From NCBI GenBank assembly GCA_046153645.1, contig JBJXGI010000102.1:1-18567 (forward strand): DNA of 18,567 nucleotides, written 5' to 3'. Position numbers and translations under genes: made by a program. This document shows, in pieces, positions 411-17,206 of this stretch (positions are counted from its first letter, which is position 1; every line of letters starts with the position of its first letter). The notes below the pieces were generated by a model. That model worked only from the letters and a program-made list of their open reading frames with translations, had not been told where the DNA came from and made no database searches. The DNA is from Elusimicrobiota bacterium (GTDB lineage: Bacteria; Elusimicrobiota; Elusimicrobia; F11).

Positions 411-2396
411 TTATTTAAAACTTTGAGCAATCCACACGAGCATCGAACCGAGCCCAATAACAATCCAAAACAAATAACTTTGAATCAGTCCTGATTGTAG
501 TTTCTTCATACCAGAACCCAATTTATCAATGATGAAACCATTTCCATCAATAAGAATTTTATCTACAAATTTTCCATCTAAAAAAGAACTCACAACTGAA
601 GTGATTTTTCCACTGCGGCCAATACCATCAACAACACCTTGATCCAAAATATCATAGTCAATTTTGGCTAAAAACCGACTTATCGGATGATAAATATGAC
701 CAATGGCCCATAAATAAATCTCATCAATTTTCCAGCGATCAGTTAAAAATTTATGAGGAATTGAAAATTGTTTCCCTAAAAATGGATAAACCGGTGGTTT
801 AGACATATATATCCAACCTGCCATAGCCAAACCAAAACCAAAGGCCGCCAATGAAATATAAAGAATCATCGGAGCATGATGAACAGCTTCACCATGTTCT
901 CCCCAAGCGATGAATTTTCCAATATTCCCACCATGAATCAAAAAGTAGCCTAAAACCACAGATAAAAAAGCGAGGAGAACTAAAGGAATTGTCATAAGAG
1001 CGGGAGATTCGTGGGCATGATGAAATTTTTCTTCATCGCGGGGATGACCCACAAAAGTTAAAAACCAAGTTCTAAACATATAAAAAGAAGTCATCAGTGC
1101 CGCTAAAGCCAAAAGCGCAAAAATAACCGGGTTATGATGATGAGCGACCGCTAGTACCTCTTCTTTAGAATAAAACCCTGATAAAAAAGGACAACCCGCA
1201 ATCGCTAACGTACCGATTAAATAACAAGTTGAAGTAATAGGCATTTTTTTACGAAGCCCGCCCATCTGCCACATATCGTTTGTATGAACTGAGTGAATAA
1301 CACTTCCTGCGCATAAGAAAAGAAGCGCTTTGAAAGCAGCATGCGTGGTTAAATGAAACATGCCAGCAACATACCCACCACAACCCAATGCGGCCATCAT
1401 AAATCCAAGTTGACTTACAGTTGAAAAAGCAAGAACACGTTTAATATCACGAGAAACAAGTCCCATACTAGCGGCCACCAGAGCGGTAATAACTCCAACC
1501 CAAGCAACAACTTCCATTGTTAAGTGAGACGCCTCAAAAAGGAAAAATACTCTGGCTACCATATAAACCCCAGCTGCAACCATGGTAGCAGCGTGAATGA
1601 GAGCTGAAGCGGGAGTGGGGCCTTCCATAGCATCGGGCAACCAAACATGTAAAGGAAACTGAGCCGATTTTCCCATTGCGCCAAAGAAGAGCATCAGGGG
1701 AACACCAACAACAACCCAAGTAGGATAAGAAGAAACCATTGTTTTTATATTTTCAGAAAGGGCCGGAATATTAAATGTCCCCATATAATTGAAAATAGTT
1801 AATAGCGCAATATATAAACCTAAGTCGCCGACTTTTGTAGTTAAGAACGCTTTTCTACCCGCATAAGCGGCAGCATCACGCTCAAAGTCAAAACCGATAA
1901 GAAGATAGGAACATAATCCCACCATCTCCCACCCGATAAAAAACTGCAACATGTCATTAGCAACAACCAGGATGAGCATTGAAAATGTAAATAAATTGAC
2001 GTAAGCGAAATAACGTCCAAAACGCTTATGATCATGCATATATGAGATGGAATAAAGCTGAACCAAGAATGAAACAAAAGTGACAACAACCAACATAACA
2101 GAGGAGAGACCATCAATTAAAACACCCAAACGAAAATCGAAATTACCGACTGAAAACCAAGTCATGTATTTTTCGTAAAAAAGGCCTTGAAGACCTTCTG
2201 TAGGCAAAACAATGCTTCCTTTCATAATTCCAACAGCAATCAACAAGGAATGGACAAAACAATACCCCATTGCGACTAGCCCCACCCAAGCGCCTTGAAG
2301 TCCTAAAAATTTTCGAAAGAAAATAATAAGTACAAAGGCCAACAAAGGCGCAAACACAATTTGATATGAATTTTCAAGCAAAAAAGCTGCTGACAT
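411..2396 (-). CDS. nuoL: NADH-quinone oxidoreductase subunit L, with elongated lateral helix
   Basis: Motifs DGLS..M, YSISYM, F.GWE.VGLCSYLLIGF, GKSAQFPLHVWLPDAMEGPTPASALIHAATMVAAGVY, HAAFKALLFL.AGSVIH, GF.SKE and C-terminal QSG.IQ.Y. RBS AAAGGA at 2404-2409. Confidence 0.97.
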   Translation of the reverse strand: MSAAFLLENSYQIVFAPLLAFVLIIFFRKFLGLQGAWVGLVAMGYCFVHSLLIAVGIMKGSIVLPTEGLQGLFYEKYMTWFSVGNFDFRLGVLIDGLSSVMLVVVTFVSFLVQLYSISYMHDHKRFGRYFAYVNLFTFSMLILVVANDMLQFFIGWEMVGLCSYLLIGFDFERDAAAYAGRKAFLTTKVGDLGLYIALLTIFNYMGTFNIPALSENIKTMVSSYPTWVVVGVPLMLFFGAMGKSAQFPLHVWLPDAMEGPTPASALIHAATMVAAGVYMVARVFFLFEASHLTMEVVAWVGVITALVAASMGLVSRDIKRVLAFSTVSQLGFMMAALGCGGYVAGMFHLTTHAAFKALLFLCAGSVIHSVHTNDMWQMGGLRKKMPITSTCYLIGTLAIAGCPFLSGFYSKEEVLAVAHHHNPVIFALLALAALMTSFYMFRTWFLTFVGHPRDEEKFHHAHESPALMTIPLVLLAFLSVVLGYFLIHGGNIGKFIAWGEHGEAVHHAPMILYISLAAFGFGLAMAGWIYMSKPPVYPFLGKQFSIPHKFLTDRWKIDEIYLWAIGHIYHPISRFLAKIDYDILDQGVVDGIGRSGKITSVVSSFLDGKFVDKILIDGNGFIIDKLGSGMKKLQSGLIQSYLFWIVIGLGSMLVWIAQSFK

Positions 2397-2415: not shown

Positions 2416-3192
2416 TTAATTGAGCTCTAAAAAAAACTTTTTGATCGACCCTTCTAAGGTTGAAGATGAAATCAATGATTTAGCACTCTTTAATAAATCC
2501 TTAGAAAGTTGACTGTCCATTTCTATTAACTCAGAACGAACCCAAGATCTTTGCGCTTCACCAATCAAATCTTCTTTAATTTTTCCGGTTTTAATTCCTT
2601 GAACATGATCCCATTCAAACACATTATTCATAAAAACCAGTTGAATCTCTTTCGGAGTTTGTTGCTGTTGATCAAACCAAATAAACAAATGTGTTTCATT
2701 AACTCCTTGGAACCAACGCAAAGCTTGTCCCGGTTTTTGTTGCAACGCTGTCGGATCAATTTCCCGGAGCGATTGCCCAACAATTTTAGGTTCTACAAAC
2801 CATTCCAGCTGATTAAAGTCTTTCGGGAAAGGAGCAACGAACTGAAAAGCAACATTGTCTTTACTAATAAACCGAACCACCTTTAATTGTAATAAAAGAG
2901 AAAAATCTTCTATTTCAAGAGAACTGGAATATATCTGACCTTCCTTAAGTCTCTGTACATCTTCAATATTTTGAAAGACCATCCGGCATCCACGAAGGCT
3001 AATGTTTTTTACATTTCCTAAAGGAAATTTATCTATTTCCCCTGATTCCGGTTTTAATAAAAAAATTCTTGGCTTTGGGTGATCGTCAAGCTCTAATCGA
3101 AATTGTTTCCGTTTTTCATTCCATGATAAAGATTGATCAGAAGATTCTTTATCGTTACTTTTATTAAACCCGAACCAATTTTTTAAACTCAT
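2416..3192 (-). CDS. PilZ-domain protein (candidate c-di-GMP receptor) with an uncharacterised C-terminal domain
   Basis: RxxxR (RKQFR, aa 28-32) followed 30 residues later by (D/N)xSxxG (NISLRG, aa 63-68) and a beta-rich segment ending KVVRF...VAFQF. The start overlaps the nuoK stop (ATGA, 3189-3192). Soluble, 258 aa. Confidence 0.78.
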   Translation of the reverse strand: MSLKNWFGFNKSNDKESSDQSLSWNEKRKQFRLELDDHPKPRIFLLKPESGEIDKFPLGNVKNISLRGCRMVFQNIEDVQRLKEGQIYSSSLEIEDFSLLLQLKVVRFISKDNVAFQFVAPFPKDFNQLEWFVEPKIVGQSLREIDPTALQQKPGQALRWFQGVNETHLFIWFDQQQQTPKEIQLVFMNNVFEWDHVQGIKTGKIKEDLIGEAQRSWVRSELIEMDSQLSKDLLKSAKSLISSSTLEGSIKKFFLELN

Positions 3193-3494
3193 CCTTGCAG
3201 TATATTCATTTTCTCAACAAGAATATTTCGCGATTGTCGATATATGGTTAAAACCAAAGCCAATCCAACAACGGCCTCTGCTGCGGCTAAGGCAATAATA
3301 AATAACACAAAACCTTGACCCCATAAATTTTCTGGGTACAAATAACGGTTAAATACAATAAAATTAATAGCAGCAGCGTTAAACAAAAGCTCAACGGACA
3401 TCAGAATTCCCACAACATTTCTTCTGGCTAAAATTCCGTACAAACCAATAGAAAAGAGAATGGCGCTTAAAATAAGAAAAGGTTTTGGACCCAT
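3189..3494 (-). CDS. nuoK: NADH-quinone oxidoreductase subunit K
   Basis: 101 aa with three hydrophobic helices; motifs LFSIGLYG...RRN...LMSVELL.NAA and AAAEAVVGLA. Confidence 0.97.
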   Translation of the reverse strand: MGPKPFLILSAILFSIGLYGILARRNVVGILMSVELLFNAAAINFIVFNRYLYPENLWGQGFVLFIIALAAAEAVVGLALVLTIYRQSRNILVEKMNILQG

Positions 3495-3986
3495 TTACGA
3501 TGCCTTCTTTGAACTAAAAAATATTGCCCCAATCAGTGCTACCACCATAACCAACGAAATGACTTCGAAAGGAAGGACCATTTGTTTTATTAACAGATCT
3601 CCTAACTTACCGGTTGTGGCCTGAGGTTCGAGCATTTTAATAGGCACTGACCATTTACAAATAAATCCCAACATGGCCGTAACAAAAAAAATCGAAAAAA
3701 GCCCTGCAGCCCATGATTTTTCATTGACTTGGCGACCCGTCCAATCGCTGGGTTTGCCCGATAAGAGAACGACAAAAAGAAGAATAATCATAACGCCGCC
3801 AATATAAACAAGAAGCTGGACTGCAAATAAAAAGTCAGCCGCTAACATTGCATAAATTCCCGCTACCCCCAATAAAGAGGTGACCAAAAAAAGAGCGGCG
3901 TGAAAAACATTTTTAACGCTAACAACCAACAAAGCAGGAACAAGAGTTAATAAAGCTAAAATTCCAAATATTAAATATTCGATCAT
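3495..3986 (-). CDS. nuoJ: NADH-quinone oxidoreductase subunit J
   Basis: Motifs N.FHAAL.L, ADFL.AVQLLVYIGGV.I..LFV and LPFE..S; position between nuoI and nuoK. Confidence 0.95.
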   Translation of the reverse strand: MIEYLIFGILALLTLVPALLVVSVKNVFHAALFLVTSLLGVAGIYAMLAADFLFAVQLLVYIGGVMIILLFVVLLSGKPSDWTGRQVNEKSWAAGLFSIFFVTAMLGFICKWSVPIKMLEPQATTGKLGDLLIKQMVLPFEVISLVMVVALIGAIFFSSKKAS

Positions 3987-4516
3987 TGTGCGACTTCTCC
4001 CTTTTCTTTAGGATCCGAAAGAGACGAAATTTTTTCTTTTCTTCCATCTGGCATAAAACGAAACCATTCTTGTGCTTTGGGACCTTGAGCAACTGTATCG
4101 GCCAGTGTGGGGCCCCATTTAACCAAAGCGTCTTTTCTACCGTCAAAAACAACTTCGTATTCATTGGAATGATGAACAGATTTTACCTTTGTAGGACAGG
4201 CTTCTTCACAAAGGCGACACACATTACATTTCGCGAAATCTATTTGATACCACGATAAATCTTTCTTCTTGGTTTGTTCATTGCGAACCCACTCCATTGA
4301 AATAACATCGGAAGGGCAAACTCTAACGCACATTTCACAAGAAATACAAATCTCAGGATGAAATGAAAGCACACCTCTAAATCTTTCTGGGACCGGTTTT
4401 TTCTCTCTTGGAAACTGGAAAGTGTGTGCGGGTTTAAAGTAGTACTTCAGGGTGAGCATCATCCCCTTCATGGTGGCCCAAGATACTCTAAAAATAGTTT
4501 TCAAATCCCAAAACAT
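3983..4516 (-). CDS. nuoI: NADH-quinone oxidoreductase subunit I (2x[4Fe-4S])
   Basis: T.QFP.E...PERFRG motif plus two ferredoxin motifs, CISCEMCVRVCP and CNVCRLCEEACP. Confidence 0.95.
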   Translation of the reverse strand: MFWDLKTIFRVSWATMKGMMLTLKYYFKPAHTFQFPREKKPVPERFRGVLSFHPEICISCEMCVRVCPSDVISMEWVRNEQTKKKDLSWYQIDFAKCNVCRLCEEACPTKVKSVHHSNEYEVVFDGRKDALVKWGPTLADTVAQGPKAQEWFRFMPDGRKEKISSLSDPKEKGEVAQ

Positions 4517-5794
4517 TTACTTAAGCCTCCACAACAAAACAAAACCCGTAATTAAGATATTTATCAAAGTCCATGGAATGAAAATTTTCCAACACAAATC
4601 CATAATTCGATCAACTCGAATTCGAGGGAAAGTCCAACGACTCCAAAGGAAAATAAATATAAGTCCAAATGTTTTCATGAGCATCCAAGCCCAAGAAGGA
4701 ATGAAATCAAGCGCTGGGAAAAGCGGCGACCCTCCGCCTAAGAAAAGAACCGCACCTAACAAAGATCCGATAAACACATAAGCATATTCAGCTAAAAAGA
4801 AAATCGCAAATTTCATTCCACCATATTCCGTGTGAAAACCTGCGGTTAATTCAGATTCAGCTTCAGGAACGTCAAAAGGAACTCGGTTGGTTTCAGCAAT
4901 CGTGGTAATAAGATAAATGATAAAACTAATTTGACCCACAACGGGATAGAAAATAAACCATCGGGGAAACCATCCGCCCATATGAAGTGATTGTGCGTTC
5001 ATAATATGAGTCAGGTTCATAGAGCCCACCCACATAATAACAGGAACAACTGATAAAATTCGTGGAATTTCAAATGACACAACTTGTGCAGCCGCTCGAA
5101 GTCCACCAAATATAGAAAATTTGTTGTTAGATCCCCACCCTGCCATCAATACACCAATAGTAGAAAGACCCGAAACAGCCATGACATAAATAAGACCAAT
5201 ATCTAAATCGAGAGCGGCTAATCCATTCCCCAAAGGAAGGGGAGCCACACATAAATACGCAGGAACAAACACAATGACCGGTGCTAAACGAAATACCCAT
5301 TTATCTGAACCGAGAGGCTCAATAATTTCTTTTAAAAGAAGTTTAATCCCATCGGCAATTGTTTGTGCCCAACCATGCCATCCTCCCACATCCATGGGAC
5401 CTAACCGCCCTTGTATATGAGCGGCCACTTTTCGTTCCCACCAAACAAGAACGGCGGGAATTGCTTGGATAATTTGAATCCAAATAACAGCAGGAATAGT
5501 GATAGCTAAAATTGTCGGAATGAATAAAGGAATGTTATTTTTCGCAGCAAGATCAAAAATAAATTTATGTCCTAATTTAAACCAAGGTGATAATTCTCCA
5601 ATCGCAGAAACAGCTCCAATAAAAAGCGCCACAAGCGCCGTTAGCCAAATAGCAGAACGAACCCAACTTTGACGCATTCGAACTTGTTTATCTTGGAACT
5701 TTTGAAGATATTCGCGCATCCTTTCTGAAGAAGGATCGGGAATAACCACAGAAGGCGCTACCGGGGCCGGAGTGGGTTGAACAGATTCACTCAT
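4517..5794 (-). CDS. nuoH: NADH-quinone oxidoreductase subunit H, with N-terminal extension
   Basis: Motifs ERK..A.IQ.R.GP, Q.IADG.KLL.KE, GW.SNNKFS..GG.RAAAQ..S.E and AETNR.PFD.PEAESEL..GF.TEY.G..FA.FF.AEY. The start overlaps the nuoD stop (ATGA, 5791-5794). Confidence 0.96.
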   Translation of the reverse strand: MSESVQPTPAPVAPSVVIPDPSSERMREYLQKFQDKQVRMRQSWVRSAIWLTALVALFIGAVSAIGELSPWFKLGHKFIFDLAAKNNIPLFIPTILAITIPAVIWIQIIQAIPAVLVWWERKVAAHIQGRLGPMDVGGWHGWAQTIADGIKLLLKEIIEPLGSDKWVFRLAPVIVFVPAYLCVAPLPLGNGLAALDLDIGLIYVMAVSGLSTIGVLMAGWGSNNKFSIFGGLRAAAQVVSFEIPRILSVVPVIMWVGSMNLTHIMNAQSLHMGGWFPRWFIFYPVVGQISFIIYLITTIAETNRVPFDVPEAESELTAGFHTEYGGMKFAIFFLAEYAYVFIGSLLGAVLFLGGGSPLFPALDFIPSWAWMLMKTFGLIFIFLWSRWTFPRIRVDRIMDLCWKIFIPWTLINILITGFVLLWRLK

Positions 5795-6960
5795 CGGTCA
5801 ACCTCCCCCAAAACGAAATCGAGAGATCCCAATATGGCAATGACATCTCCTACTTTCCAACCACGAATCATTTCACTCAAAGCTTGTAGGTTAATAAATG
5901 AAGGAGGGCGAACATGATATCGATAAGGGCGATCGGTTCCATCAGAGACAATATAAGTTCCCAACCACCCACGAGGACCTTCGAGTTGGTCGTATACCTC
6001 TCCTGCACTTGGACGATAAACCTTTCCCACTTTTCCCATGACTGGACCTTCAGGAAATTTATCGCAAGCTTGCTCAATAATGCGAAGAGATTCACTCATT
6101 TCTTGGCGACGAACCATAAATCGATCGTAGCAGTCTCCTTTTTTGCCAAGAGGTACATCAAATTTAAATTCTTTATAAATGCTGTAGGGATGATCACGTC
6201 TTAAATCCAAATCAACGCCACTTCCACGCAAACAAGGACCCGTGAGTCCATAATTAATAGCTCTTTCAGCTGATATTGGACCAATACCGATGGTTCGATC
6301 CATAAAAATAGGATTGTAAGTTAAAAGAGTATCGTATTCCTCTAAATTCTTTTTCATTTTGTTAACAAAATTTTTCACTCGACCAATCCACCCTTCAGGA
6401 ATATCAAGCATAACGCCACCAACTCGAATATAGTTATAGGTAATTCGAGCGCCACAGATTTCTTCAAAAAGATCCAAAATTTCTTCACGATCTCGACCAA
6501 ACGCGTGTAAAAATGGCGTAAAAGCACCAATATCAATTCCATAGGTCCCATAAAAAACCATATGAGAAGCAATTCGATTTAATTCACCAACAATCACACG
6601 AATAAAGTCCGCACGAACAGGAATTTCAACTTTGAGTAATTTTTCAACAGCCAAACAATAGGCCCAATTATTATTCATGGCTGATAAATAATCATCTCGG
6701 TCAGTCAGCACAACAATCATGGGATAAGTTCTATTTTCAGCAAGTTTTTCAACACCACGATGCAAATACCCTAAATCTGGAACTGAATCTGTAATAACTT
6801 CGCCATCGAGCTTAAGAACAACTCGCAATACGCCATGCGTAGAAGGGTGTTGTGGCCCAAGATTGAGCAACATTTCATTTTCACCAACTTGCTCGATTTT
6901 CGTTTCAAATACCGGGCCAGTGGCAATAATTTTTGCGGGATCTAAAATATCAGACGCCAT
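5791..6960 (-). CDS. nuoD: NADH-quinone oxidoreductase subunit D
   Basis: Motifs LNLGPQHPSTHGVLR, GYLHRG.EK, ELNRIASH and C-terminal GSLDFVLGEVDR. No CxxC Ni-binding motifs. Confidence 0.97.
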   Translation of the reverse strand: MASDILDPAKIIATGPVFETKIEQVGENEMLLNLGPQHPSTHGVLRVVLKLDGEVITDSVPDLGYLHRGVEKLAENRTYPMIVVLTDRDDYLSAMNNNWAYCLAVEKLLKVEIPVRADFIRVIVGELNRIASHMVFYGTYGIDIGAFTPFLHAFGRDREEILDLFEEICGARITYNYIRVGGVMLDIPEGWIGRVKNFVNKMKKNLEEYDTLLTYNPIFMDRTIGIGPISAERAINYGLTGPCLRGSGVDLDLRRDHPYSIYKEFKFDVPLGKKGDCYDRFMVRRQEMSESLRIIEQACDKFPEGPVMGKVGKVYRPSAGEVYDQLEGPRGWLGTYIVSDGTDRPYRYHVRPPSFINLQALSEMIRGWKVGDVIAILGSLDFVLGEVDR

Positions 6961-7501
6961 GGGATTCCTTTAACTTTAACGGCACACCCTTTTCATCTAA
7001 ACCAGGTGTTCCGATTTCTAAACCAGAATCAAATTTATCCGTAATGTGGACATAGTCTTTTCTTAAGGGATATCCTGGGAATCCTTCCCACATCATAATT
7101 CGCTTTAAATAAGGATGTCCCTTAAAAGTTATACCCATTAAATCGAAAACCTCACGTTCTTGCCAATTCATTCCGGTCCATAAAGAACTGACCGAGTCAA
7201 CTTCTGCTTTATCACGTGGAATTTGTGTTTTAAGGACAATTCCTTTTTTATTTTTTGTTGAGTAAAGATAATAAATGAGTTCGAACAACCCCTCTTTAAT
7301 AAAATCAACACTCGTCATTTGAATAGGAAGGTCAAAATTAAGAGAAGTGTCTTCTTTGAGATATTTACAAATGGAGAAAAGAGTTTCAGGGGTTACTTTT
7401 ACCACAACTTCAGGGTCACGAATGGCTTTTTCAGCAATGGGTGGAATAACCGCATCAGGAAATTTAGAACATACTTTTTGAGCGACATCTACTGTGAACA
7501 T
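6950..7501 (-). CDS. nuoC: NADH-quinone oxidoreductase subunit C
   Basis: Motif SVS.LW...NW.ERE.FDL.GI.F.GHP.L.RI......GYPLRKDY. Confidence 0.96.
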   Translation of the reverse strand: MFTVDVAQKVCSKFPDAVIPPIAEKAIRDPEVVVKVTPETLFSICKYLKEDTSLNFDLPIQMTSVDFIKEGLFELIYYLYSTKNKKGIVLKTQIPRDKAEVDSVSSLWTGMNWQEREVFDLMGITFKGHPYLKRIMMWEGFPGYPLRKDYVHITDKFDSGLEIGTPGLDEKGVPLKLKESHGV

Positions 7502-7504
7502 AAC

Positions 7505-8092
7505 TTACGAAGACCTCGCAGTAATAGAAGCATCATTCACAGCTTTTAAAATTTCACGAGTGGGTTGTGCGGGATAAGCAACTCGCTTTCCAGCGTCCCA
7601 ATATTTATTTATTTTTTCTTGAAGCGCGATGACAGCAGTTAGTAATGCTTCAGGACGAGGAGGACAACCAGGCACATAAATATCAACAGGAATAATTTTG
7701 TCTACACCTTTGGCCACAGAATAAGAATCGTAATAAGGACCACCGCAATTAGAACAGGCTCCCATCGAAATAACAAATCGGGGTTCAGGCATTTGATGAT
7801 AAAGAGTTTCAACAGCTGGAGCCATTTTTTTGACAACAGTTCCCGCGATAATCATAAGGTCAGCTTGCCTCGGTGTTGGACGAGGAATAACACCAACACG
7901 GTCAAAATCATATCTAGACGCATAAGCCGCCATCATTTCAATGGCACAACATGCCAAACCAAAAGTTAGAGGCCAAATAGAAGATCGTCTTGCCCAGTCG
8001 ATAAAAAAATCCACTCCCGTTAGGAGCAGTTCACCGCCAAGAACCTTATGTCTCTTAATAATAGGAAGATTGTTAAATACTGGACTTGTCAT
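7505..8092 (-). CDS. nuoB: NADH-quinone oxidoreductase subunit B
   Basis: Motifs [36 protein letters not shown] and [14 protein letters not shown] (N2 cluster ligands). Confidence 0.97.
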
Positions 8093-8096
8093 AAAA

Positions 8097-8459
8097 TTAC
8101 TCCCACTTTAAAGCGCCTTTACGCCAGGCCACAACGAAGGCAACAAACAAAATAGCAATGAATGAGATCATGCTCAAAAAGCCCATCATTCCAAGTGATT
8201 TAAATTGAACGGCCCAAGGAAGAAGAAAAACGGTCTCAACATCGAAAATAACAAAAATAAGGGCAAATACATAAAAACGAATATTAGGAGAAACATAAGG
8301 AGTCCCGATCGGCTCCATTCCGCACTCATAAACAGAACGACGAAGTGGGTCTGTCCCTCTTTCACGAAGAATATAATTGGCGAAAAATACACCAAAGATG
8401 AAAGCGAAACCGATGGCTAAATAAACCAACAATCCCGCATATTGACTAAGATTTAACAT
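8097..8459 (-). CDS. nuoA: NADH-quinone oxidoreductase subunit A
   Basis: Motifs YECG.EP, RFY.FAL.FV.FDVE..FL.PWAV and C-terminal W.KGALKWE. Confidence 0.97.
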
Positions 8460-9139
8460 CTCACTCCCACATATAAACCAGCGATACCACCAATAAGAGG
8501 ATGATAACTCGCTTGATTAAAACCTGCCCATCTTATGTATTGGCACATCTGCTGCGGTTCTGGAAAACTATAAATAGTTTTTTCTAAATAATCTTTGGGC
8601 CAACGTTCACCAAAGTTAAGCCAACCAACAAGAGGAAGCACTGTTTTCAAATATGTTTTATGACCCCAAGCTAAAAAGTTATTCGGTGGTCGTGATAATT
8701 CTAAGTGAACCATTTTTCCGCCGGGTTTAGTAACTCGAAAAAACTCTCTGAGAGAAGGAGTCAGAATTCCACCTTGATTCAAATTTCTCAAAACAAAAGA
8801 AGAAGTGATTCCATCAAAACTTTTTGGTTCAAAGGGCAACTCATCGGCAGAGGCCACTTGAAACCGAATTTGATCATTACTCCCAAGCTTCTTTTGAGCT
8901 GCTTCTATCATTGGTTCAGAAAAATCGACTCCGACAACACTACAACCTTTACTCAGCAATTCCTTTGCTAAGTCACCCGTTCCAGTTCCAACATCGAGAA
9001 TACTCGAGTTGCTATTAAACATTCGCGCTAATTCACGTCTCCAAGCTTGATCAAGGCCTAAACTACTAATGCGATTAAAACGATCATATTCCGGAACGAG
9101 AGCGTCAAACATCTCCCGAATGGGAGAGGAACTTTTCAT
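8453..9139 (-). CDS. ubiE: UbiE/MenG family C-methyltransferase (demethylmenaquinone/ubiquinone biosynthesis)
   Basis: N-terminal MFD....YDR.N.I.SLGLD..WRR signature, SAM motif ILDVGTGTGD, DFS..M, LPF...SFD..T.SF.LRN and RV.KPGG. Overlaps the nuoA start by 7 nt. Confidence 0.85.
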   Translation of the reverse strand: MKSSSPIREMFDALVPEYDRFNRISSLGLDQAWRRELARMFNSNSSILDVGTGTGDLAKELLSKGCSVVGVDFSEPMIEAAQKKLGSNDQIRFQVASADELPFEPKSFDGITSSFVLRNLNQGGILTPSLREFFRVTKPGGKMVHLELSRPPNNFLAWGHKTYLKTVLPLVGWLNFGERWPKDYLEKTIYSFPEPQQMCQYIRWAGFNQASYHPLIGGIAGLYVGVRC

Positions 9140-9318
9140 TAAAGATCTTCAACTCCAAGAGTCTTTTTCTTGCCATCCAATCTTACTTTTTCAACTGAAG
9201 CATTTAAAATATCTTCTACTTTTTTGGAGAGAGCTTCAATATAATCTCCACCAGTTCTATACCCAGCTTCTTTTACTTTTCCTTTAATTTTACTTACAAC
9301 AACGTATGTTTCAGACAT
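9139..9318 (-). CDS. Bacterial histone-fold protein (Bd0055/HBb-like singlet histone), 59 aa
   Basis: Absent from the ORF track; translated by hand as MSETYVVVSKIKGKVKEAGYRTGGDYIEALSKKVEDILNASVEKVRLDGKKKTLGVEDL*. AAGGAG RBS at 9324-9329, 5 nt before the ATG. Its TAA overlaps the ubiE ATG (TAATG). The pattern VV.SK.K..K..G..T....I..LSK..E.......VE....DG.KT...D matches Bdellovibrio Bd0055 as I recall that sequence. Confidence 0.88.
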   Translation of the reverse strand: MSETYVVVSKIKGKVKEAGYRTGGDYIEALSKKVEDILNASVEKVRLDGKKKTLGVEDL

Positions 9319-9442
9319 GATTTCTCCTTGTTGCTATCCAGTGTTGGATGGCATTAGCTATTGAAATATGAGTCTAATATTTTAATTATGATAAACCTTA
9401 AAGGTTAATGTGGCCAATGGAGGACACGTGAAAATCAAAGAG

Positions 9443-9472
9443 ATAATAAGACAATTATATTCAACCTGTCAA
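9443..9472 (-). promoter_or_regulatory. Putative sigma70 promoter for the histone-ubiE-nuo operon
   Basis: Minus strand reads TTGACA (9472-9467), an 18-nt spacer, then TATTAT (9448-9443). It sits in the 163-bp gap upstream of the histone gene. Confidence 0.55.
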
Positions 9473-9481
9473 AAAAATCTT

Positions 9482-11254
9482 TTAGGCCGCGCATTCGCCT
9501 TGACCAATTTGCGCCTTGAATTCATCAAATTCACCCCACTCAAAATACATTTCTTTCTTTTCATCATAGGCGGGCAATGACTTAAAAGGCTCAACTTCTT
9601 TCTTTAATCGATCTTTTCCCAATCGCTCCATTGTTTCAACAAATTTTTCTGAAGCTTGTTTTTCTTTTTTGAATAACTGAACCAAATGTTTCACTACTTC
9701 AGGCGCCCGCTTTGCTGGAATAGCTGCAATAGCTTGTCCAAACCGCGCAGAACCCTCTTGGATATCTCCGCCAATCAATAATTGATAATGAGGAACTTCA
9801 TGGCCATTAACTTTCCGATAGGTCCCAAAGAATCCAATATTTCCGATGTGATGCTGTCCACATGAATTGGTACAACCTGAAATTTTAATGCTCAGGTCTT
9901 TTAAGTCGGCATCTTGAGCCAACCCATTCTTAAATAAATCAAGAATAGCACCCGCAAGTCCACGGGACTTCGTCACCGCAATCTGACAAGTGTCAGCACC
10001 TGGGCAGCGAGTGACATCTGATAAACGCAAAGCCCCACCCGTTGCAAGTCCGATAGCAACAAGCTCATTAAAAAATGAAACAAGATGCTCTTGTTTAATC
10101 CAAGGTAAAAAAAGATTTTGTTGAACCATGGTTCGAAGTTGACCACCATTATATTTGCGGGCTATGTTCGCCAAAGATCGCATCTGAGGAACATTGATAT
10201 CCCCAAGAGGAGTCACAACAATGACCATCACATAACCGGATTGTTTTTGTTGAATAACATTCGTTTGACGCCACGTTTCAAAACCCGCTTGGGGTTTCGC
10301 ACTTAAATCAACAGAAACATTAACAACAGGAGGAACCAATGGTTTTTCTTCAGGGATAACCCATTTAACTTTTCCAGGGCGAACAGCTCTCACCTGAGCG
10401 CGTTCATCAATAACCATTTTACGAAACGCCGCGTCTCCAAACTTTTTCAAAACAAATTTTAAGCGCGCATGAAATTTATCAATACGATCGCCATGTCGAT
10501 CAAAAATGCGACAAACGGCATCCGTTGTCGAATAAAAATCAGCCAAGGGGGTGAATTCTTCTAATAATATGGCTAAGTGCGGTGTGGCTCCGAGACCTCC
10601 ACCTAAATAAATGCGAAAACCCTTTTCTTCTTTTCCGTTCACAGTTCTTTTGGCGGCAACAAATCCCATATCATGAATAGCGGTATAGGCAATATCTTCT
10701 TTCCCTCCTCCATAAAAAGCAATTTTAAATTTACGCGGGAAATTTTGATAAGCAGGGTGACGCAGTAAATATCGAAACAAGCTTTGCGCATAAGGGGTTA
10801 CATCAAAAAGTTCATCTGAAGAAAAACCAGCAAAAGGAGTTGCAGTTAGATTTCTCACGGTGTTACCGCAGGCTTCACGAGCTGTCAAACCACAAGCTTC
10901 AATTTCAGTCAACGCTTGAGGGATGCTCTCCAAAGGGACATGATGAATTTGTATGGCTTGGCGAGTTGTCACATGTGCCAATTTTGTCCGGGTATATTTT
11001 TCTGTAAGTCCTGCAACAACATCTAATTGATCTGAGGTTAAAATGCCATGAGGACATTTGATTCGAATCATCTGTAAATCAGTTTCATTTCTAATGCCAT
11101 ATACGCCATTATTCAGACGAAACTTTTTAAATTCATTGGGATCCATTTTGCCAGAACGGAGCAATTGAATATTCTCTTTAAACCGAGTGACTTCTTCCAA
11201 AGCCTCTGGAGAGAGTTTTCCCAGATCAACTTGAGTTTCAACGGCTAACGACAT
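9482..11254 (-). CDS. Siroheme/[4Fe-4S] sulfite (or nitrite) reductase hemoprotein, ferredoxin-dependent Sir/NirA type
   Basis: Motifs F..FRL.NGVYG.R, M.RIK.P.G, H.TTRQ.IQ.H, REACGNTVRN, .PRKFKI, and cluster ligands CPGADTC and SGCTNSCGQH; C-terminal GQGECAA. The start is reassigned from the track's 11281 to the ATG at 11254 because GAGGAGG (11261-11267) lies 6 nt upstream. The cysteine synthase neighbour favours sulfite as substrate. Confidence 0.9.
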   Translation of the reverse strand: MSLAVETQVDLGKLSPEALEEVTRFKENIQLLRSGKMDPNEFKKFRLNNGVYGIRNETDLQMIRIKCPHGILTSDQLDVVAGLTEKYTRTKLAHVTTRQAIQIHHVPLESIPQALTEIEACGLTAREACGNTVRNLTATPFAGFSSDELFDVTPYAQSLFRYLLRHPAYQNFPRKFKIAFYGGGKEDIAYTAIHDMGFVAAKRTVNGKEEKGFRIYLGGGLGATPHLAILLEEFTPLADFYSTTDAVCRIFDRHGDRIDKFHARLKFVLKKFGDAAFRKMVIDERAQVRAVRPGKVKWVIPEEKPLVPPVVNVSVDLSAKPQAGFETWRQTNVIQQKQSGYVMVIVVTPLGDINVPQMRSLANIARKYNGGQLRTMVQQNLFLPWIKQEHLVSFFNELVAIGLATGGALRLSDVTRCPGADTCQIAVTKSRGLAGAILDLFKNGLAQDADLKDLSIKISGCTNSCGQHHIGNIGFFGTYRKVNGHEVPHYQLLIGGDIQEGSARFGQAIAAIPAKRAPEVVKHLVQLFKKEKQASEKFVETMERLGKDRLKKEVEPFKSLPAYDEKKEMYFEWGEFDEFKAQIGQGECAA

Positions 11255-11301
11255 AATGTTCCTCCTCACGACTAGCGCCAATTTTGGAAATGGCGTCTAA
11301 C

Positions 11302-11793
11302 TTATGAAATTCTTATTAATTCTTCAGCAAAAGGCTGATTATCTTCTTCTCGAAACCAGGAACGCATTTCAAAAGCTTTTCCTTTCTGAACTGAAACAAT
11401 GATATTAGACCACTGCGCTAAAAAAGGCTGGGATTCATCAATTTTACTTGGAATCGCTGGGTGATCAGGATGAGTATGAATCACACCAATCACATCCAAT
11501 CCTTCTTTTTCCGCTTTTAATGTTTCCCGGTTAAACTCGTCTGGTTTCATCAAAAATTCTGTTTTTCCAGCCCCTTTTCCTTGTCGATGCTCAGGTAATG
11601 TAGGGGCAATGTTATTTTCATTACCTAAAAGGTCATTGGTAAGGGCTGCCAAACGAATCATTTCTTTGCCTTTCCCAGGTAGAAATTGACCTATCAGCAA
11701 CCCACAACCCTCATGTGGATATGCTTTTTCAGCCCAGGTAAAAATAATTTGTTTAAGCGCTGCAGAGACAACTAAAAACGAATCAACTGACAT
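11302..11793 (-). CDS. JAB/MPN+ (M67) metallopeptidase, Mec-like sulfur-carrier-protein hydrolase
   Basis: AYP.E.CGLL.G plus the JAMM motif HTHPDHPAIPSKID (HxH-x7-S-x2-D). Lies 1 bp downstream of the cysteine synthase gene. Confidence 0.88.
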   Translation of the reverse strand: MSVDSFLVVSAALKQIIFTWAEKAYPHEGCGLLIGQFLPGKGKEMIRLAALTNDLLGNENNIAPTLPEHRQGKGAGKTEFLMKPDEFNRETLKAEKEGLDVIGVIHTHPDHPAIPSKIDESQPFLAQWSNIIVSVQKGKAFEMRSWFREEDNQPFAEELIRIS

Positions 11794-11794
11794 A

Positions 11795-12793
11795 TTAAGG
11801 TTTTTTCGATCGGGGCATTTCTAATTGATCGTGAGTTCTCCAATATTTCTCAAAATAATTTACCATTTCTTCCCAAAAACGGGAATTCATATATCTTTCG
11901 CCGCCATCACAAAGCACACACACAACAACAGCATTTTTTACCCCAAGGGCGACTTCAAAAGCTCCTTGTAAAGCAGCTCCTGAAGAAAATCCAACCAAAA
12001 CCCCTTCTTCTCTGGCCAGACGACAGCACATCTCATAGGCATCTTCAGTATGAACGCTCACTTTACGATCATGAACTTTTGAATCATAAATCCCCGGAAC
12101 AATAGAGGAAGCCATGTGCTTTAACCCTTCTAAACCGTGTAAAGGAGAATAAGGTTCCACTGCGACAATTTCAATTTTTGGGTTTAATTCTTTGAGCCTG
12201 CGCCCCGTTCCCATCAAAGTACCAGAAGTTCCAATACCAGCAACAAAATGTGTAATTTTTCCTTCTGTTTGAGCCCATACTTCTTCAGCGGTTGTTTCAT
12301 AATGAGCTTTCCAATTATTGGGATTATTATATTGATCGGGCATATAATAACGATTGGGATTATTTTTTAAAAGCTCTAGCGCTTTAACGATCGCCCCGTC
12401 AGACCCTTCCAGAGGATCTGTGTAAATAACTTTTGCCCCAAATGCTTCACTAATTCGCGCTTTTGTTACAGCATTTTCTGGAATACATAGCTCTACCTTA
12501 TAACCAAGCGCCGTACCAATCATGGCATAAGCAATTCCTGTATTACCGCTACTAGAATCAAGAATAATTTTATCTTTGGTTAATTCACCCGATTTGATAG
12601 CGCCTAAAATCATGTGGCGGGCAGCGCGGTCTTTAACAGATCCCCCCGGATTTGCAAATTCAGCTTTACCAAATATTTGAGATCCGTGATCGCCCAACCA
12701 ATGATTAAAACGATCAAACCGGAGAAGAGGTGTGTTTCCAATTCTCTCCAATAAGTTCAAACCATGATGATGAGTTGTTAACGTGCTGTTCAT
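11795..12793 (-). CDS. cysM: PLP-dependent cysteine synthase (CysM-like)
   Basis: Motifs IGNTPL, K.E..NPGGSVKDR (PLP lysine), SSGNTG, DQY.NP.N..AH..TT, GIGTSGT, EG...G.SSGA and D.GERY. Confidence 0.9.
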   Translation of the reverse strand: MNSTLTTHHHGLNLLERIGNTPLLRFDRFNHWLGDHGSQIFGKAEFANPGGSVKDRAARHMILGAIKSGELTKDKIILDSSSGNTGIAYAMIGTALGYKVELCIPENAVTKARISEAFGAKVIYTDPLEGSDGAIVKALELLKNNPNRYYMPDQYNNPNNWKAHYETTAEEVWAQTEGKITHFVAGIGTSGTLMGTGRRLKELNPKIEIVAVEPYSPLHGLEGLKHMASSIVPGIYDSKVHDRKVSVHTEDAYEMCCRLAREEGVLVGFSSGAALQGAFEVALGVKNAVVVCVLCDGGERYMNSRFWEEMVNYFEKYWRTHDQLEMPRSKKP

Positions 12794-12816
12794 TGCCGGT
12801 GAAAGGTTAAGATCAT

Positions 12817-13599
12817 TTATGCAGGTTGGCCAACGATTTCCCCGGCATAGACTTTTTTAATCCCAGAGGCGGATTCTAGCAGAAGGTTCCCTTCTGTATC
12901 AACGGAAGAAAGTGTCCCTTGAATGGTTTTATCTCCCATTTGAACTTTTGTTTTCTTACCAATGCCAAATAGTTTTGTCTCAAATGCTTTTTGATAAGGA
13001 CCAAAACCTGTTGAAGGATAATCTTTCCATGCGGTATAAATGGCAGAAAGAACAGCTTCTAGTAATCGTGACCGTCCTTGCGTTTGTTTGCGTATATCTT
13101 TAATCGCAATCGCGATTTGTGAAAGCTCTTTGGGAATTGCATTATTAACATTAACGCCAACACCAATGAGGAGCCAGTCTTTTTTATATTTCGTGGTGGT
13201 TGACAACAAAATCCCTGCTACTTTTTTCCCCTCAGCCAAAATATCATTGGGCCATTTTACCTGACACTCCAAATTATTAACTTCTTTTAACGCATTAGAG
13301 ACCTGAAGAGCCGTTACCAACGAAAATGCGCCTATTTTTTCAATCGATATATCACTCAAAGGAAGGGCCAATGTAAACCAGAGTCCACCAGGAGGAGAAA
13401 TCCACTCACGACCTTGCCTTCCCACTCCTTTTGACTGAGTTTCTCCAATAACAACCACAGCACCATCAGCCAATTTGGGTAACCATTGAATAATTCGGCT
13501 TTGTGTAGAGTCCACTTTGTCAAAATATTTGGCTTCAACAATCCATGGTAAATCAACCTTTAATCTAGCGGAAACTTGTAATAATTCTGAAATAGCCAT
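12817..13599 (-). CDS. birA: Biotin--[acetyl-CoA-carboxylase] ligase (no N-terminal HTH)
   Basis: Motifs DST, E.Q.KG.GRQGR.W.SPPGGLW, KWPND, KK.AGIL, GVGVNV and C-terminal AGE. The start overlaps the nadC stop (TAATG at 13599). Confidence 0.94.
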   Translation of the reverse strand: MAISELLQVSARLKVDLPWIVEAKYFDKVDSTQSRIIQWLPKLADGAVVVIGETQSKGVGRQGREWISPPGGLWFTLALPLSDISIEKIGAFSLVTALQVSNALKEVNNLECQVKWPNDILAEGKKVAGILLSTTTKYKKDWLLIGVGVNVNNAIPKELSQIAIAIKDIRKQTQGRSRLLEAVLSAIYTAWKDYPSTGFGPYQKAFETKLFGIGKKTKVQMGDKTIQGTLSSVDTEGNLLLESASGIKKVYAGEIVGQPA

Positions 13600-14468
13600 T
13601 ATAAAACCTCCAAGGATAAATCTAAGATTGGTGCTGAGTGCGTTAAAGCACCAACAGATATTCGATCAACTCCCAACTTCGCCAATTTTCTGGCTTTTTC
13701 TAATGTTACGCCGCCTGACACTTCAATTAATGGATAAGGCGAATTCAAGGCTCGACGAGCAGCTTCAACAAAAAAAACGGCTTTTTTAATCATTGGAATG
13801 TCCATATTATCCAATAAAACAATATCGGCCCTACACTTAATAGCATTCCAAACTTCCTTAATATTTCTAGCCTCTAAAGCTAAAAATTTTATTTTCTTAT
13901 GTTTTGTTTTTTCTTTACTAAACACTGCTAACGGTGTCATTTTCTTTTGATATAGAAATTCTAAATGATTATCTTTAACCAAAATGGCATCACCCAATGA
14001 AAACCGGTGATTGGTGCCCCCAGCGCAATGGACTGCGTACTTTTCCAAGTCCCGCCATAAAGGGGTGGTTTTCCTAGTGTCTAAAATGGAGACATGTGAA
14101 CCCCTTACAGCGTCAACATATTTCTTTGTTAAGGTTGCAATGCCACTTAAATGACAAATCAAATTGAGAATGGTTCGTTCTGCCCCTAAAATGGCTTTCG
14201 CCGTTCCTTTTAAAGAAAGAATTTTCTCCCCCGAGCGAACAATACTACCATCGCTTTTATGTATTTTAACATGGGATCTCGAATCTAAAAGTCTCAAGGT
14301 TTCTAACACAATGAAACTTCCACAAAAAACACCAGGAGATTTAGCAATCACAGTAGCGCTTACTTCATGTTTAGAAAATTCCGGAAGAAAATGAGTGGTT
14401 ACATCAGAAAATGCCTGATCTTCAATAAGAGCGCTTTTTAAACGTTGTGATAAATTTTCAAATTTCAT
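13599..14468 (-). CDS. nadC: Nicotinate-nucleotide diphosphorylase (quinolinate phosphoribosyltransferase)
   Basis: Motifs ERT.LN....LSGIAT.T, DTRKTTP, NHR..L.D..L.KDNH, LLDNM, E.SGG and ISVGALTHS. Confidence 0.96.
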   Translation of the reverse strand: MKFENLSQRLKSALIEDQAFSDVTTHFLPEFSKHEVSATVIAKSPGVFCGSFIVLETLRLLDSRSHVKIHKSDGSIVRSGEKILSLKGTAKAILGAERTILNLICHLSGIATLTKKYVDAVRGSHVSILDTRKTTPLWRDLEKYAVHCAGGTNHRFSLGDAILVKDNHLEFLYQKKMTPLAVFSKEKTKHKKIKFLALEARNIKEVWNAIKCRADIVLLDNMDIPMIKKAVFFVEAARRALNSPYPLIEVSGGVTLEKARKLAKLGVDRISVGALTHSAPILDLSLEVL

Positions 14469-14646: not shown

Positions 14647-15912
14647 ATGAAAAAGAAAAGAAAAGTTCCTGTTTCTCGTTATTCTGCAAAAGCCAAACAG
14701 CCCCCCCGACAAGCTGCTCGCAGATTATTTTCCAAGAAACTTTCCAAAAAATCTCAAATTGAAAAAAAATTGGTTCCGTTGTTGGAATGGAAAAGGAAAC
14801 TGGCTCTCCTTCTTAAATTCGGGAAAAAAGCCGCCACCACAACACATATTGATGAATTACTCCAGTTATTAGTAGAAGAATCCAAAGCCGTCTTAAACGC
14901 AGATCGTGCAACGGTTTTTTTAGTTGATCGAAAAACAAAAGAGCTTTGGTCAAAAGTAGCATCAGGAACAAAAACGATTAGAATTCCTATGGAAAAAGGA
15001 ATTGCCGGCGCGGTGGTTATTTCTGGAAATCTTCTTAACATTAAAGACGTCTATAAAGATGCACGTTTTAATTCCGACATCGATCAGAAAACAGGATATA
15101 AAACAAAAACAATGCTTGCGGCTCCGATGTTTACGGCAAAAGATTCTGTGTTAGGTGTTTTTCAAGTATTAAACCGAAAAGATCAAAAATCTTTTGACAA
15201 ACAAGACGAAGAACTTTTAACCATGATCGCCGACCAAGCCTCAGCCCATATTGAAAACGCGCAACTTTACCAAGAAATTCGAAAAGTAACCCAAGAAACC
15301 ATTATTCGCCTTGCTGCCGCTGTTGAGTTTAAAGATCATGACACCCGCGCCCACTTATGGAGAATGAGTCAATATTCAGCCATTATTGCTCGAGAAATGG
15401 GCTTTGAAAACGAATGGGTCGAAAATTTAAGATTAGCTGCGCCTATGCATGATATTGGGAAAATAGGAGTTCCTGATGCTATCTTAAACAAACCAGGGAA
15501 ATTAGATCCACAAGAATGGGAAGAAATGAAAAAACACCCACTTTATGGGGCTGACATTTTAAAAGACGCAGAGAACGAACTCATGCAAATGTCGGCAACG
15601 ATTGCCTTATGTCACCATGAAAAATGGGATGGTTCGGGATACCCCAGAGGAATCAGTGGTGAAGCCATTCCCATAGAAGCAAGAATTGCGACTTTGGCTG
15701 ATGTTTTTGACGCCTTAACAAGTAAAAGAGTTTACAAAGCCTCCTTTTCGCTTGAAGACACTCTAAAAATCGTTGATGAAAACACCGGCAAACATTTTGA
15801 TCCAAAAGTGGTTGAGGCGTTCTATAAAAGCCTTCCCAAAGTAAAAGCGATTATGGAATCCTATGCTCCAAGAGAAGATAACAACCATTCTCCTGTTCCG
15901 ACTACTTGGTAA
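14647..15912 (+). CDS. GAF + HD-GYP cyclic-dinucleotide phosphodiesterase
   Basis: GAF domain (ADRATVFL.D...ELWS.V, GIAG.V, NI.D.Y.D.RFN..ID..TGY.T...L..P, GV.QV.N) followed by an HD-GYP domain (KD..T..H, HDIGKIG, KPGKL, HP..G, HHEKWDGSGYP, ADVFDALTS.R.YK). The start codon is uncertain because there is no clear RBS. Confidence 0.93.
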   Translation: MKKKRKVPVSRYSAKAKQPPRQAARRLFSKKLSKKSQIEKKLVPLLEWKRKLALLLKFGKKAATTTHIDELLQLLVEESKAVLNADRATVFLVDRKTKELWSKVASGTKTIRIPMEKGIAGAVVISGNLLNIKDVYKDARFNSDIDQKTGYKTKTMLAAPMFTAKDSVLGVFQVLNRKDQKSFDKQDEELLTMIADQASAHIENAQLYQEIRKVTQETIIRLAAAVEFKDHDTRAHLWRMSQYSAIIAREMGFENEWVENLRLAAPMHDIGKIGVPDAILNKPGKLDPQEWEEMKKHPLYGADILKDAENELMQMSATIALCHHEKWDGSGYPRGISGEAIPIEARIATLADVFDALTSKRVYKASFSLEDTLKIVDENTGKHFDPKVVEAFYKSLPKVKAIMESYAPREDNNHSPVPTTW

Positions 15913-15925
15913 ATATAAAAATCCC

Positions 15926-15953
15926 TTGAAAAATACGCCGCATTTGTTAGGTT
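15926..15953 (+). promoter_or_regulatory. Possible sigma70 promoter for the pilT/pilU gene
   Basis: TTGAAA (15926-15931), a 16-nt spacer, then TAGGTT (15948-15953) with an extended -10 TG at 15945-15946. Confidence 0.3.
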
Positions 15954-16018
15954 TGAATGGTAGTGATATTGCTTTGGTTTTGATAGAAATATAAAAAGCA
16001 CAATTTTACGAGGCCCCC

Positions 16019-17206
16019 ATGGAATACAAACGACTCATCGAACTCATGCTCAGAGATGGAATATCCGATATCCTTTTTAAGCCCGGATCTTGCCCCCTTA
16101 TTAGAGTCAATGGCCAGTTGGTACAAACAAATTTAGAACCCCTTAACGCCACTCAAACAGAAGAAATCGCCAAAAGTCTTTTAACGCCAGAACAACAAAA
16201 AGAATTTTCAGAAAAAAATGAAATGGACGTTGCCTGCACATTAGACGGTGTTAGTCGCTTTAGAGTAAATCTCTATCGACAAAAAGGAAGTATCGCTGTT
16301 GCCTTAAGAACCATTCCTTTAACGTTAAAATCATTTGAAGACTTACATCTTCCTTCGCAAACCCTTAAAAAACTAGTTGCTCAAGGAAGGGGATTGGTAC
16401 TCTTTGCCGGCGTCACCGGGGCTGGAAAAACAACCACCATGAATTCAATCATTAATTATCTAAATACCAACTTCACTTACAATATTATTACCGTTGAAGA
16501 TCCCATTGAATATATCCATACCGATATCAAATCCTCAATCTCACAGAGAGAAATAGGACAAGACACGGCCTCTTTTAAGGCCGCGTTAAAAAATGTTCTC
16601 AGACAAAGCCCCGATGTTATTGCCATCGGTGAAATGAGAGACCCTGAAACCATGGCCGCCGCCCTTTCGGCTGCTGAATCAGGTCACCTGGTTTTATCAA
16701 CCATTCATACATTAGATGCCATTCATGCGGTATCGAGATTGGTAGACGCTTTTCCCCCACACGAACAGAATTCCGTTCGACAACAGGTAGCAGGTGTCGT
16801 AACAGGAATTGTCGCTCAACGACTGGTAAGATCAATTGATGGGAGCCACCGCTATCCTGCCTCTGAAATTCTTATCGGAACAACTTTCATGAAAAGACTT
16901 TTGGCGGAAGGAAGAACAGAAGAGATCTTAAGACACGTCCAACAAGATACTTATTACGGAATGCATACCTTTGATCAGGACCTTGAAAGATTACATTCTC
17001 AAAATTTAATTTCTACTCAAGAAGCGCTAAATCATGCCACCAATCTAGAAGATCTTGCGCTTAAATTGCGTGGGGTTGATCGAGGAATTGTTTCCAACAA
17101 TGGAGACAAACAGATCAATAGCTCAACAACTTCAAGTAAAGACGTAGGGTCTGGTGGAATGGTGATTGACCTACCACAAGCCCCAAAACCTAAAAAAGCC
17201 CCTTAA
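16019..17206 (+). CDS. pilT: Type IV pilus retraction ATPase, PilT/PilU family
   Basis: RFRVN.Y.Q, Walker A GVTGAGKTT, Asp box EDPIE, SQRE.G, LRQSPDVI.IGEMRD (Walker B), His box GHLVLSTIH and GM.TFDQ.L. Confidence 0.92.
   Translation: MEYKRLIELMLRDGISDILFKPGSCPLIRVNGQLVQTNLEPLNATQTEEIAKSLLTPEQQKEFSEKNEMDVACTLDGVSRFRVNLYRQKGSIAVALRTIPLTLKSFEDLHLPSQTLKKLVAQGRGLVLFAGVTGAGKTTTMNSIINYLNTNFTYNIITVEDPIEYIHTDIKSSISQREIGQDTASFKAALKNVLRQSPDVIAIGEMRDPETMAAALSAAESGHLVLSTIHTLDAIHAVSRLVDAFPPHEQNSVRQQVAGVVTGIVAQRLVRSIDGSHRYPASEILIGTTFMKRLLAEGRTEEILRHVQQDTYYGMHTFDQDLERLHSQNLISTQEALNHATNLEDLALKLRGVDRGIVSNNGDKQINSSTTSSKDVGSGGMVIDLPQAPKPKKAP

Follow-up and report, generated by a model that had tools for sequence, protein, structure and literature searches.

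The window analysed here, i.e., the whole stretch of 18,567 bp, contains a gene for a 59-residue histone followed, on the same strand, by a gene of a quinone methyltransferase family and by a complex I (nuo) gene cluster. The features of this region are the following:

9443 to 9472, minus strand: sigma70-type promoter-like site TTGACA-18-TATTAT, upstream of the histone gene, with an 11/12 match
9324 to 9329, minus strand: Shine-Dalgarno sequence AAGGAG, 5 nt 5′ of the histone ATG
9139 to 9318, minus strand: histone of the HBb/Bd0055-like alpha3 type, 59 aa, pI 8.9, with Lys51 in place of the RD-clamp Arg
9137 to 9141, minus strand: TAATG overlap of the histone stop (TAA, 9141-9139) and the menG/ubiE start, with 1 nt shared
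8453 to 9139, minus strand: MenG/UbiE-family quinone methyltransferase in the middle slot, 228 aa (TIGR01934, 186.5 bits against a cut-off of 158.35; PF01209)
8097 to 8459, minus strand: nuoA (PF00507, E 1.7e-32)
7505 to 8092, minus strand: nuoB
6950 to 7501, minus strand: nuoC
5791 to 6960, minus strand: nuoD (NF008974 and TIGR01962, above cut-off)
3189 to 5794, minus strand: nuoH, nuoI, nuoJ and nuoK, without nuoEFG before nuoH
2416 to 3192, minus strand: PilZ-like ORF between nuoK and nuoL (PF07238, E 6e-4, under the cut-off)
411 to 2396, minus strand: nuoL (NF005141 and TIGR01974, above cut-off), followed by the contig end

The nuoB, nuoC, nuoH, nuoI, nuoJ and nuoK genes were named from their translations by motifs that we take to be those of the respective subunits, and the resulting order up to the contig end is nuoA-B-C-D-H-I-J-K-[PilZ-like]-L. 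A search for NuoF (PF01512) gave nothing in this genome, which is 99.7% complete, in keeping with the complex I devoid of the N-module that the accessible text of bioRxiv 10.1101/765248 describes in several Elusimicrobia lineages. The genome also carries two heme-copper oxidase subunits and two HU/IHF genes. The middle gene had been called ubiE in the preliminary description; the family is right (TIGR01934 above its cut-off, equivalog models under theirs), but menaquinone methylation by MenG is the likelier function of the product, as the genome carries two PF02621 futalosine-pathway genes. Homologues of the PilZ-like ORF were found in 8 of the 11 other genomes of the family and in none of the 29 remaining genomes, located in six family genomes some 6 kb 3′ of the histone gene, and a c-di-GMP input to complex I is possible. 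Upstream of the histone gene, a nadC-birA-cysK/M-JAB-sulfite reductase run occupies 9482-14468 (minus strand); nadC-birA or nadC alone also directly precedes the histone in seven other loci, two of them outside the class of the window genome. A GAF and HD-family phosphohydrolase and a PilT-like ATPase (14647-17206, plus strand) are divergent from nadC, and an NrfA-type cytochrome c552 gene (17246-18535, minus strand; PF02335, E 7e-122) reaches the other contig end.

The histone ORF, its AAGGAG ribosome-binding site and the TAATG overlap with menG are all as first described: the translation is exactly the 59-aa protein that had been quoted, and the methyltransferase ORF shares 7 nt with nuoA. 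The gene had also been called unannotated, which is correct for function, since Pfam and NCBIfam gave no match for the protein and its few named homologues are labelled "hypothetical protein", and does not hold beyond function. At E≤1e-3, 663 homologues were obtained, nearly all of them 57-61 aa long among the 120 matches listed, and those with named organisms are from Elusimicrobia. Considering this uniform length together with the matches free of internal stops in 34 of the 41 genomes of our relatives sample (own genome counted), the ORF is not a chance one. Among the locus titles of the best 80 of 162 matches, 75 correspond to Elusimicrobia/Elusimicrobiota or Endomicrobia, 4 to "bacterium" and 1 to "Candidatus Obscuribacterium"; a tblastn search of the histone against a phage collection gave no match. 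Purine-rich motifs resembling Shine-Dalgarno sequences also precede the histone start in the displayed sequences of relatives. The codon adaptation of the gene is at the 99th percentile of 1961 ORFs, the 91st among 58-codon windows and the 95th against recodings of the same protein, which is a weak signal.

The promoter-like site is the top one of eight found between positions 8000 and 9700 and lies inside a 163-nt gap 3′ of the sulfite/nitrite reductase gene. Its form, TTGACA-N11/12-TTGTCTTAT(G/T)AT, recurs in 8 of the 12 loci of the family, and 8 of the 12 also keep TTGTCT at the end of the spacer, ahead of the -10 box. Together with the -35 box, TTGTCT forms a GACA-N12/13-TGTC dyad, whose full form occurs once in the genome and which may be a regulator site. 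Against Rfam, nothing in the window reached the gathering score, so the leader has no known riboswitch.

Regarding the protein itself, the best PDB sequence matches by phmmer were Bd0055/HBb (8FVX, E 5.9e-6; 8CMP, E 6.6e-6), followed by HLp (9QT0, E 1.4e-4). An AlphaFold2 monomer model built from a 30-row alignment (pLDDT 78) has a histone fold with predicted helices at residues 6-17 and 24-48 and an alpha3 of three residues, i.e., the shortened alpha2 and the alpha3 cut to 3-4 residues of the alpha3 histones. A Foldseek search with this monomer model returned nothing at E≤1e-3; its top seven rows are all alpha3 histones (probability 0.99-1.0, TM 0.71-0.75), with archaeal HMf lower (TM 0.46). 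These results bear out the histone identity proposed beforehand. The HBb category is itself defined by CLANS clustering; here the assignment follows the closest PDB sequences, HBb/Bd0055, and the Ser-Lys motif and lysines of alpha1, which in the 125 unique histone loci described below are nearly invariant (S9, K12 and K16 in 125/125; K10 in 124/125). Residues R21, T53 and D58 are present in all 125 loci and K52 in 123. The DG-RKT-xxx-D loop that had been reported is partly there: DG, K-T and D are present, but the Arg of the RD clamp (RKTxxxD) is Lys, the protein reading DG-KKKT-L-xxx-D, as it is in 113 of the 125 loci, and for this reason we class the histone as a variant of the HBb type. Six of the ten main DNA contacts of HBb, taken from the accessible text of bioRxiv 10.1101/2023.02.26.530074, are identical and four are changed (T8V, N22R, S24G and R57E), the contacting R57 being Glu in 124 of 125 loci; hence, the DNA-binding mode may differ from that of HBb. 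The residues that mark the face-to-face tetramer are replaced, HLp Arg48 by Lys44 (118/125) and Asn52 by Asp/Glu48 (never Asn), under an inferred mapping. Altogether, sequence and model support a Bd0055/HBb-like alpha3 bacterial histone of Elusimicrobiota with lineage-specific changes, predicted to form DNA-bending dimers.

To survey the gene order, we used a sample of 201 genomes in which nuoA was called at E≤1e-8. The histone was found in 55 of them, nuoA in 36 and both in 23; in 21 of these 23 the two genes lie within 1.4 kb of each other on one strand, all 21 belonging to the class of the window genome, while the two exceptions (G055 and G097) are both outside it. The joint absence of histone and nuoA from two families (f7, 0/61; f16, 0/60) suggested that the histone might occur only with complex I, which is contradicted by 32 of the 55 histone genomes without a nuoA match and by 13 nuoA genomes without a histone match.

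We then examined a pool of loci composed of 30 loci from the relatives sample, 40 regions that cover 27 of the 33 histone genomes from outside the class, and the 80 best out of 162 matches; because the latter are biased to close kin, the pooled fractions are not unbiased. After dropping a partial copy at a contig end (L044) and two loci without the histone (L031 and L072), 149 loci collapsed to 125 unique ones. These comprise 38 loci with ubiE and nuo after the histone, 40 with MidA and nuo, 7 with nuo directly, 4 with a methyltransferase on a short contig and 36 others; thus, nuo is downstream of the histone in 85 of 125. The slot between histone and nuoA therefore holds a MenG/UbiE-type gene, a methyltransferase gene of the MidA/NDUFAF7 family (PF02636 in 9 of the 9 tested) or nothing. 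A tree of the 67 loci, out of 89, with enough NuoA and NuoB separates the ubiE and MidA types by a single 100/100 branch, and five changes are needed to account for the six rows with direct linkage, which suggests one MenG/MidA swap and repeated losses of the middle gene with the histone-nuoA link retained. On the upstream side of the histone, 78 loci show 23 different groups of neighbours, with the downstream link constant. Four loci that resemble those of the class and have no downstream nuo come from genomes with weak nuoA matches (E about 1e-11) and a fifth from a genome with none, which suggests loss of nuo rather than its separation from the histone. The order kept far beyond the window genome supports the earlier proposal that the histone is the first cistron of the menG/ubiE-nuo unit.

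Promoter-like sequences are distributed in agreement with such a unit. Of 82 nuo-linked loci, 26 carry a match of at least 10/12 in the 200 nt preceding the histone, where dinucleotide shuffles predict 0.7, and 56 carry none there. The corresponding counts are 0 of 78 for the region preceding the middle gene (0.3 expected) and 3 of 85 for that preceding nuoA (0.6 expected). All these counts overstate significance because related loci are not independent. A separate promoter between the histone and the middle gene, which would have spoken against the unit, was thus not seen as a strong match in any of the 78 loci. The median gap is 35.5 nt from the histone to the aligned start of the middle gene (≤60 nt in 56/78) and -7 nt from the middle gene to nuoA. 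Since promoter-like sites precede the histone and none precedes the middle gene, co-transcription of the histone with menG and nuo is likely. The read-through may be partial, since some loci have hairpins 3′ of the histone stop: z-scores fell below -2 for 9 of 41 loci linked to nuo and for 11 of the 28 others, and a crude terminator scan was positive in 10 of 89 nuo-linked and 5 of 36 other loci, with a clear terminator-like hairpin in L027. The window has a weak hairpin that begins 11 nt past the histone stop and precedes TGTTT, with a z-score of -0.7 that is not above shuffles. A conserved attenuator after the histone as a general feature is ruled out by these z-scores and the terminator scan.

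The translational coupling suggested by the TAATG overlap fares less well. An in-frame overlap between the histone stop and the start of the next gene occurs in 8 of 89 loci (once as ATG, in the window, and seven times as TTGA), which makes it a local, not a conserved, feature. Nor would coupling control the supply of the histone, since its direction would be from histone to ubiE and not the reverse.

Nine of the 125 loci, inside and outside the class, have a rex gene 2-115 nt upstream of the histone, and five of the nine have the order rex-histone-ubiE-nuo. When searched with an operator consensus that we assume to be the one recognized by Rex, four of these five nuo-linked loci each gave a Rex-like operator with 0-2 mismatches, which lies 8-74 nt upstream of the aligned rex start and is the only such site in its locus of 5.3-6.2 kb; none was found in the fifth locus or in the four out-of-class rex-histone loci. 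In Streptomyces, Rex represses nuo (nuoA-N) and rex is autoregulated, according to the accessible text of PMC8981147. The window has neither component of a Rex regulon: the window genome gave no PF06971 hit and no tblastn match for Rex, the window promoter has no Rex or FNR site, and no Rex operator lies within 200 nt of the histone. Among the 21 genomes with adjacent histone and nuoA, Rex is above cut-off in three and beside the histone in none. In a genome of another class (G044), the order is rex-histone-127-aa ORF-nuoH-like-ORF-nuoK-L-M-N, without nuoB, C, D and I and with rpsB-tsf a few genes on, and two further loci (L046 and L054) read rex-histone-(x)-rpsB. The occurrence of rex-histone in and out of the class, together with the G044 arrangement, suggests an ancestral rex-histone-nuo locus.

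Other neighbours of the histone also deserve mention. The G044 cluster (L157:3204-10540) encodes a diverged nuo with only the membrane arm, possibly a remnant or else an antiporter-like complex put to a new use; a NuoA identity of the 127-aa ORF was considered and found no support (BLASTP E 0.017, no family match). In L112, L118 and L128 (about 3212-4590), a GltD/FprA-type flavoprotein gene lies 3′ of the histone, nuo is missing and weak nuoA matches exist in the lineage. The L112 product is FprA/adrenodoxin-reductase-like (E 1.5e-120), which rules out a type II NADH dehydrogenase replacing nuo. Genes of the Hpre_diP_synt_I type follow the histone in L058, L061 and L069, with NusG-II before it and ApbE nearby in L061 and L069; we take these genes to be those of flavinylation and Rnf clusters.

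As a control for the linkage, we followed a single HU/IHF-family gene in families f1, f4, f5, f10 and f6, the MidA-type families being outside the control. In f1, f4, f5 and f10 the histone has one group of downstream neighbours (23/23) and six groups upstream (21 loci). The HU/IHF gene has one downstream group in 22 of 24 loci and six upstream groups in 23 loci, and its downstream neighbour in the window genome is DAP-aminotransferase-like (L158:116-1767). Thus, the histone is not the only nucleoid gene here that stands at the head of a housekeeping unit of unrelated function, and the concept of "genomic hitchhiking" set out in the accessible text of PMC2588523 fits such conserved linkage of nucleoid genes. 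This control, together with the histone genomes that have no nuoA match, weakens the initial idea that nucleoid protein supply is tied to respiration; the Rex arrangement of some relatives is the one result in its favour.

The best reading of these observations is an ancient shared operon, i.e., hitchhiking, that is redox-regulated in some lineages. We consider it somewhat better than an even chance that the HBb/Bd0055-like histone is the likely first gene of a complex I operon in which it has been kept by shared high expression and not by a respiratory role. One transcript would start about 120 nt before the histone and continue through menG into nuo. The strong Shine-Dalgarno sequence of the histone would drive its own translation, so that more histone can be made than product of the genes downstream, and the TAATG overlap would be a local restart of menG translation that does not set histone supply. 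The arrangement probably derives from the ancestral rex-histone-nuo locus; where rex and the operator survive, histone transcription would track NADH/NAD+, and the window lineage appears to do without rex, using the sigma70-type promoter. Pure hitchhiking accounts less well than a selected redox link for the Rex operators and for the recurrence of FprA-like and flavinylation genes as redox neighbours. Under such a link, Rex repression of a rex-histone-menG-nuo operon would originally have tied histone supply to the respiratory or redox state, making nucleoid compaction follow energy metabolism. The nine rex-histone loci and their operators, the Streptomyces precedent, the flavoprotein, NusG-II, Hpre_diP_synt_I and ApbE neighbours in nuo-less and other loci, and the survival of the histone-nuo link through the MenG/MidA swap and about five middle-gene losses all agree with it. 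Nevertheless, Rex was not found in the window genome or in most nuo-linked genomes, the four out-of-class rex-histone loci gave no operator, the neighbours in many histone loci are unrelated to redox functions (rpsB, aroB, moeA, exbB-like), the HU/IHF gene is linked equally to an unrelated enzyme, and HBb, described as essential and abundant, is a poor fit with strong repression; we therefore regard selected redox coupling as rather unlikely. We are doubtful of the further version in which an ancestral Rex-repressed rex-histone-nuo operon was kept to tune the histone dose to NADH/NAD+, with a K/E-remodelled L2-alpha3 surface unlike that of HBb.

The histone might instead be a strong monocistronic gene with its own terminator next to a separate nuo promoter, the order being inherited inertia. 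Alpha3 histones are described as single-gene operons in the accessible text of PMC11390915, and the terminator-like hairpins of some nuo-linked loci and the weak window hairpin agree with this. Against it stand the lack of strong promoters before the middle gene, the short gaps, the window hairpin that does not exceed shuffles, and upstream neighbours that vary widely yet leave the downstream link in place; mere adjacency is, in our judgment, distinctly improbable. We find it very hard to believe that the MidA/NDUFAF7-family arginine methyltransferase of the middle slot modifies histone Arg21 (RTG) to give a bacterial histone mark. PF02636 lies directly 3′ of the histone in 43 of 125 loci, Arg21 is invariant, and all 20 genomes with PF02636 above cut-off have the histone beside nuo. 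However, 35 of the 55 histone genomes have no PF02636 above cut-off, the window genome has its PF02636 gene on another contig, and the slot is filled equally by a quinone methyltransferase. Additionally, NuoD of the window operon contains LHRG, presumably the Arg substrate motif of MidA/NDUFAF7. The described role of this family is that of a complex I assembly methyltransferase (papers cited in PMC9036352). PF02636 is above cut-off in 20 of the 201 genomes, all with this type of nuo and 10 of them with the gene beside nuoA, a distribution that would lend genomic support to a complex I role outside Proteobacteria.

No description of this context was known at the outset, and our searches of openly available full texts found no paper on a histone-complex I gene context. 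Elusimicrobiota had already been reported as hosts of "bacterial dimer" alpha3 histones in the accessible texts of PMC11390915 and PMC10627809; accordingly, the kind of histone is known, and the conserved respiratory operon context appears to be undescribed. With a class-wide operon context and a putative repressor site in one lineage, the histone transcript would be expected to co-vary with nuo and, in the rex-bearing lineages, with NADH/NAD+. If the redox-tuning reading is true, chromatin supply would be hard-wired to complex I; if there is only hitchhiking, the arrangement would be useful for marking how the genomes of respiring Elusimicrobiota are organised, but for hardly anything else. 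With its RD-clamp Arg lost across the lineage and its Arg57 changed to Glu, the histone is a natural variant for DNA-binding comparison with HBb and HLp.

Among known systems, HBb/Bd0055 of Bdellovibrio bacteriovorus (8FVX, 8CMP, 9EZZ and 9F0E) is similar in size, in its short alpha2 and in its one-turn alpha3, shares S9-K10, K12, K16, K52-T53 and D58, and has 37-39% identity (TM 0.73-0.75). It differs in R51 and R57, replaced here by Lys and Glu, and in N22, which aligns with the invariant Arg, while loop L1 is here one residue shorter and L2 one longer. HLp of Leptospira perolatii (9QT0, a face-to-face tetramer) is the top Foldseek row (TM 0.71) and aligns without gaps over residues 3-47, L1 loop included; it differs in its tetramer markers, missing here by the inferred mapping, and in its neighbours, SMC, MAP and DUF350 (accessible text of PMC12701072). 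In contrast to the alpha3 histones described as single-gene units, the Elusimicrobiota histone heads a respiratory cluster, which would correct that generalisation. The RdgC and IHF histones of the accessible PMC11390915 text are also conserved within multi-gene operons, as the first gene in the RdgC case; they have DNA-related or unknown partners and C-terminal extensions, whereas the histone described here is minimal and its partners are respiratory. Finally, the Streptomyces Rex regulon, as far as the accessible text of PMC8981147 goes, has nuo as a Rex target, resembling the five rex-histone-ubiE-nuo loci; the difference is that Rex was not found in the window genome and that the unit here includes a histone.
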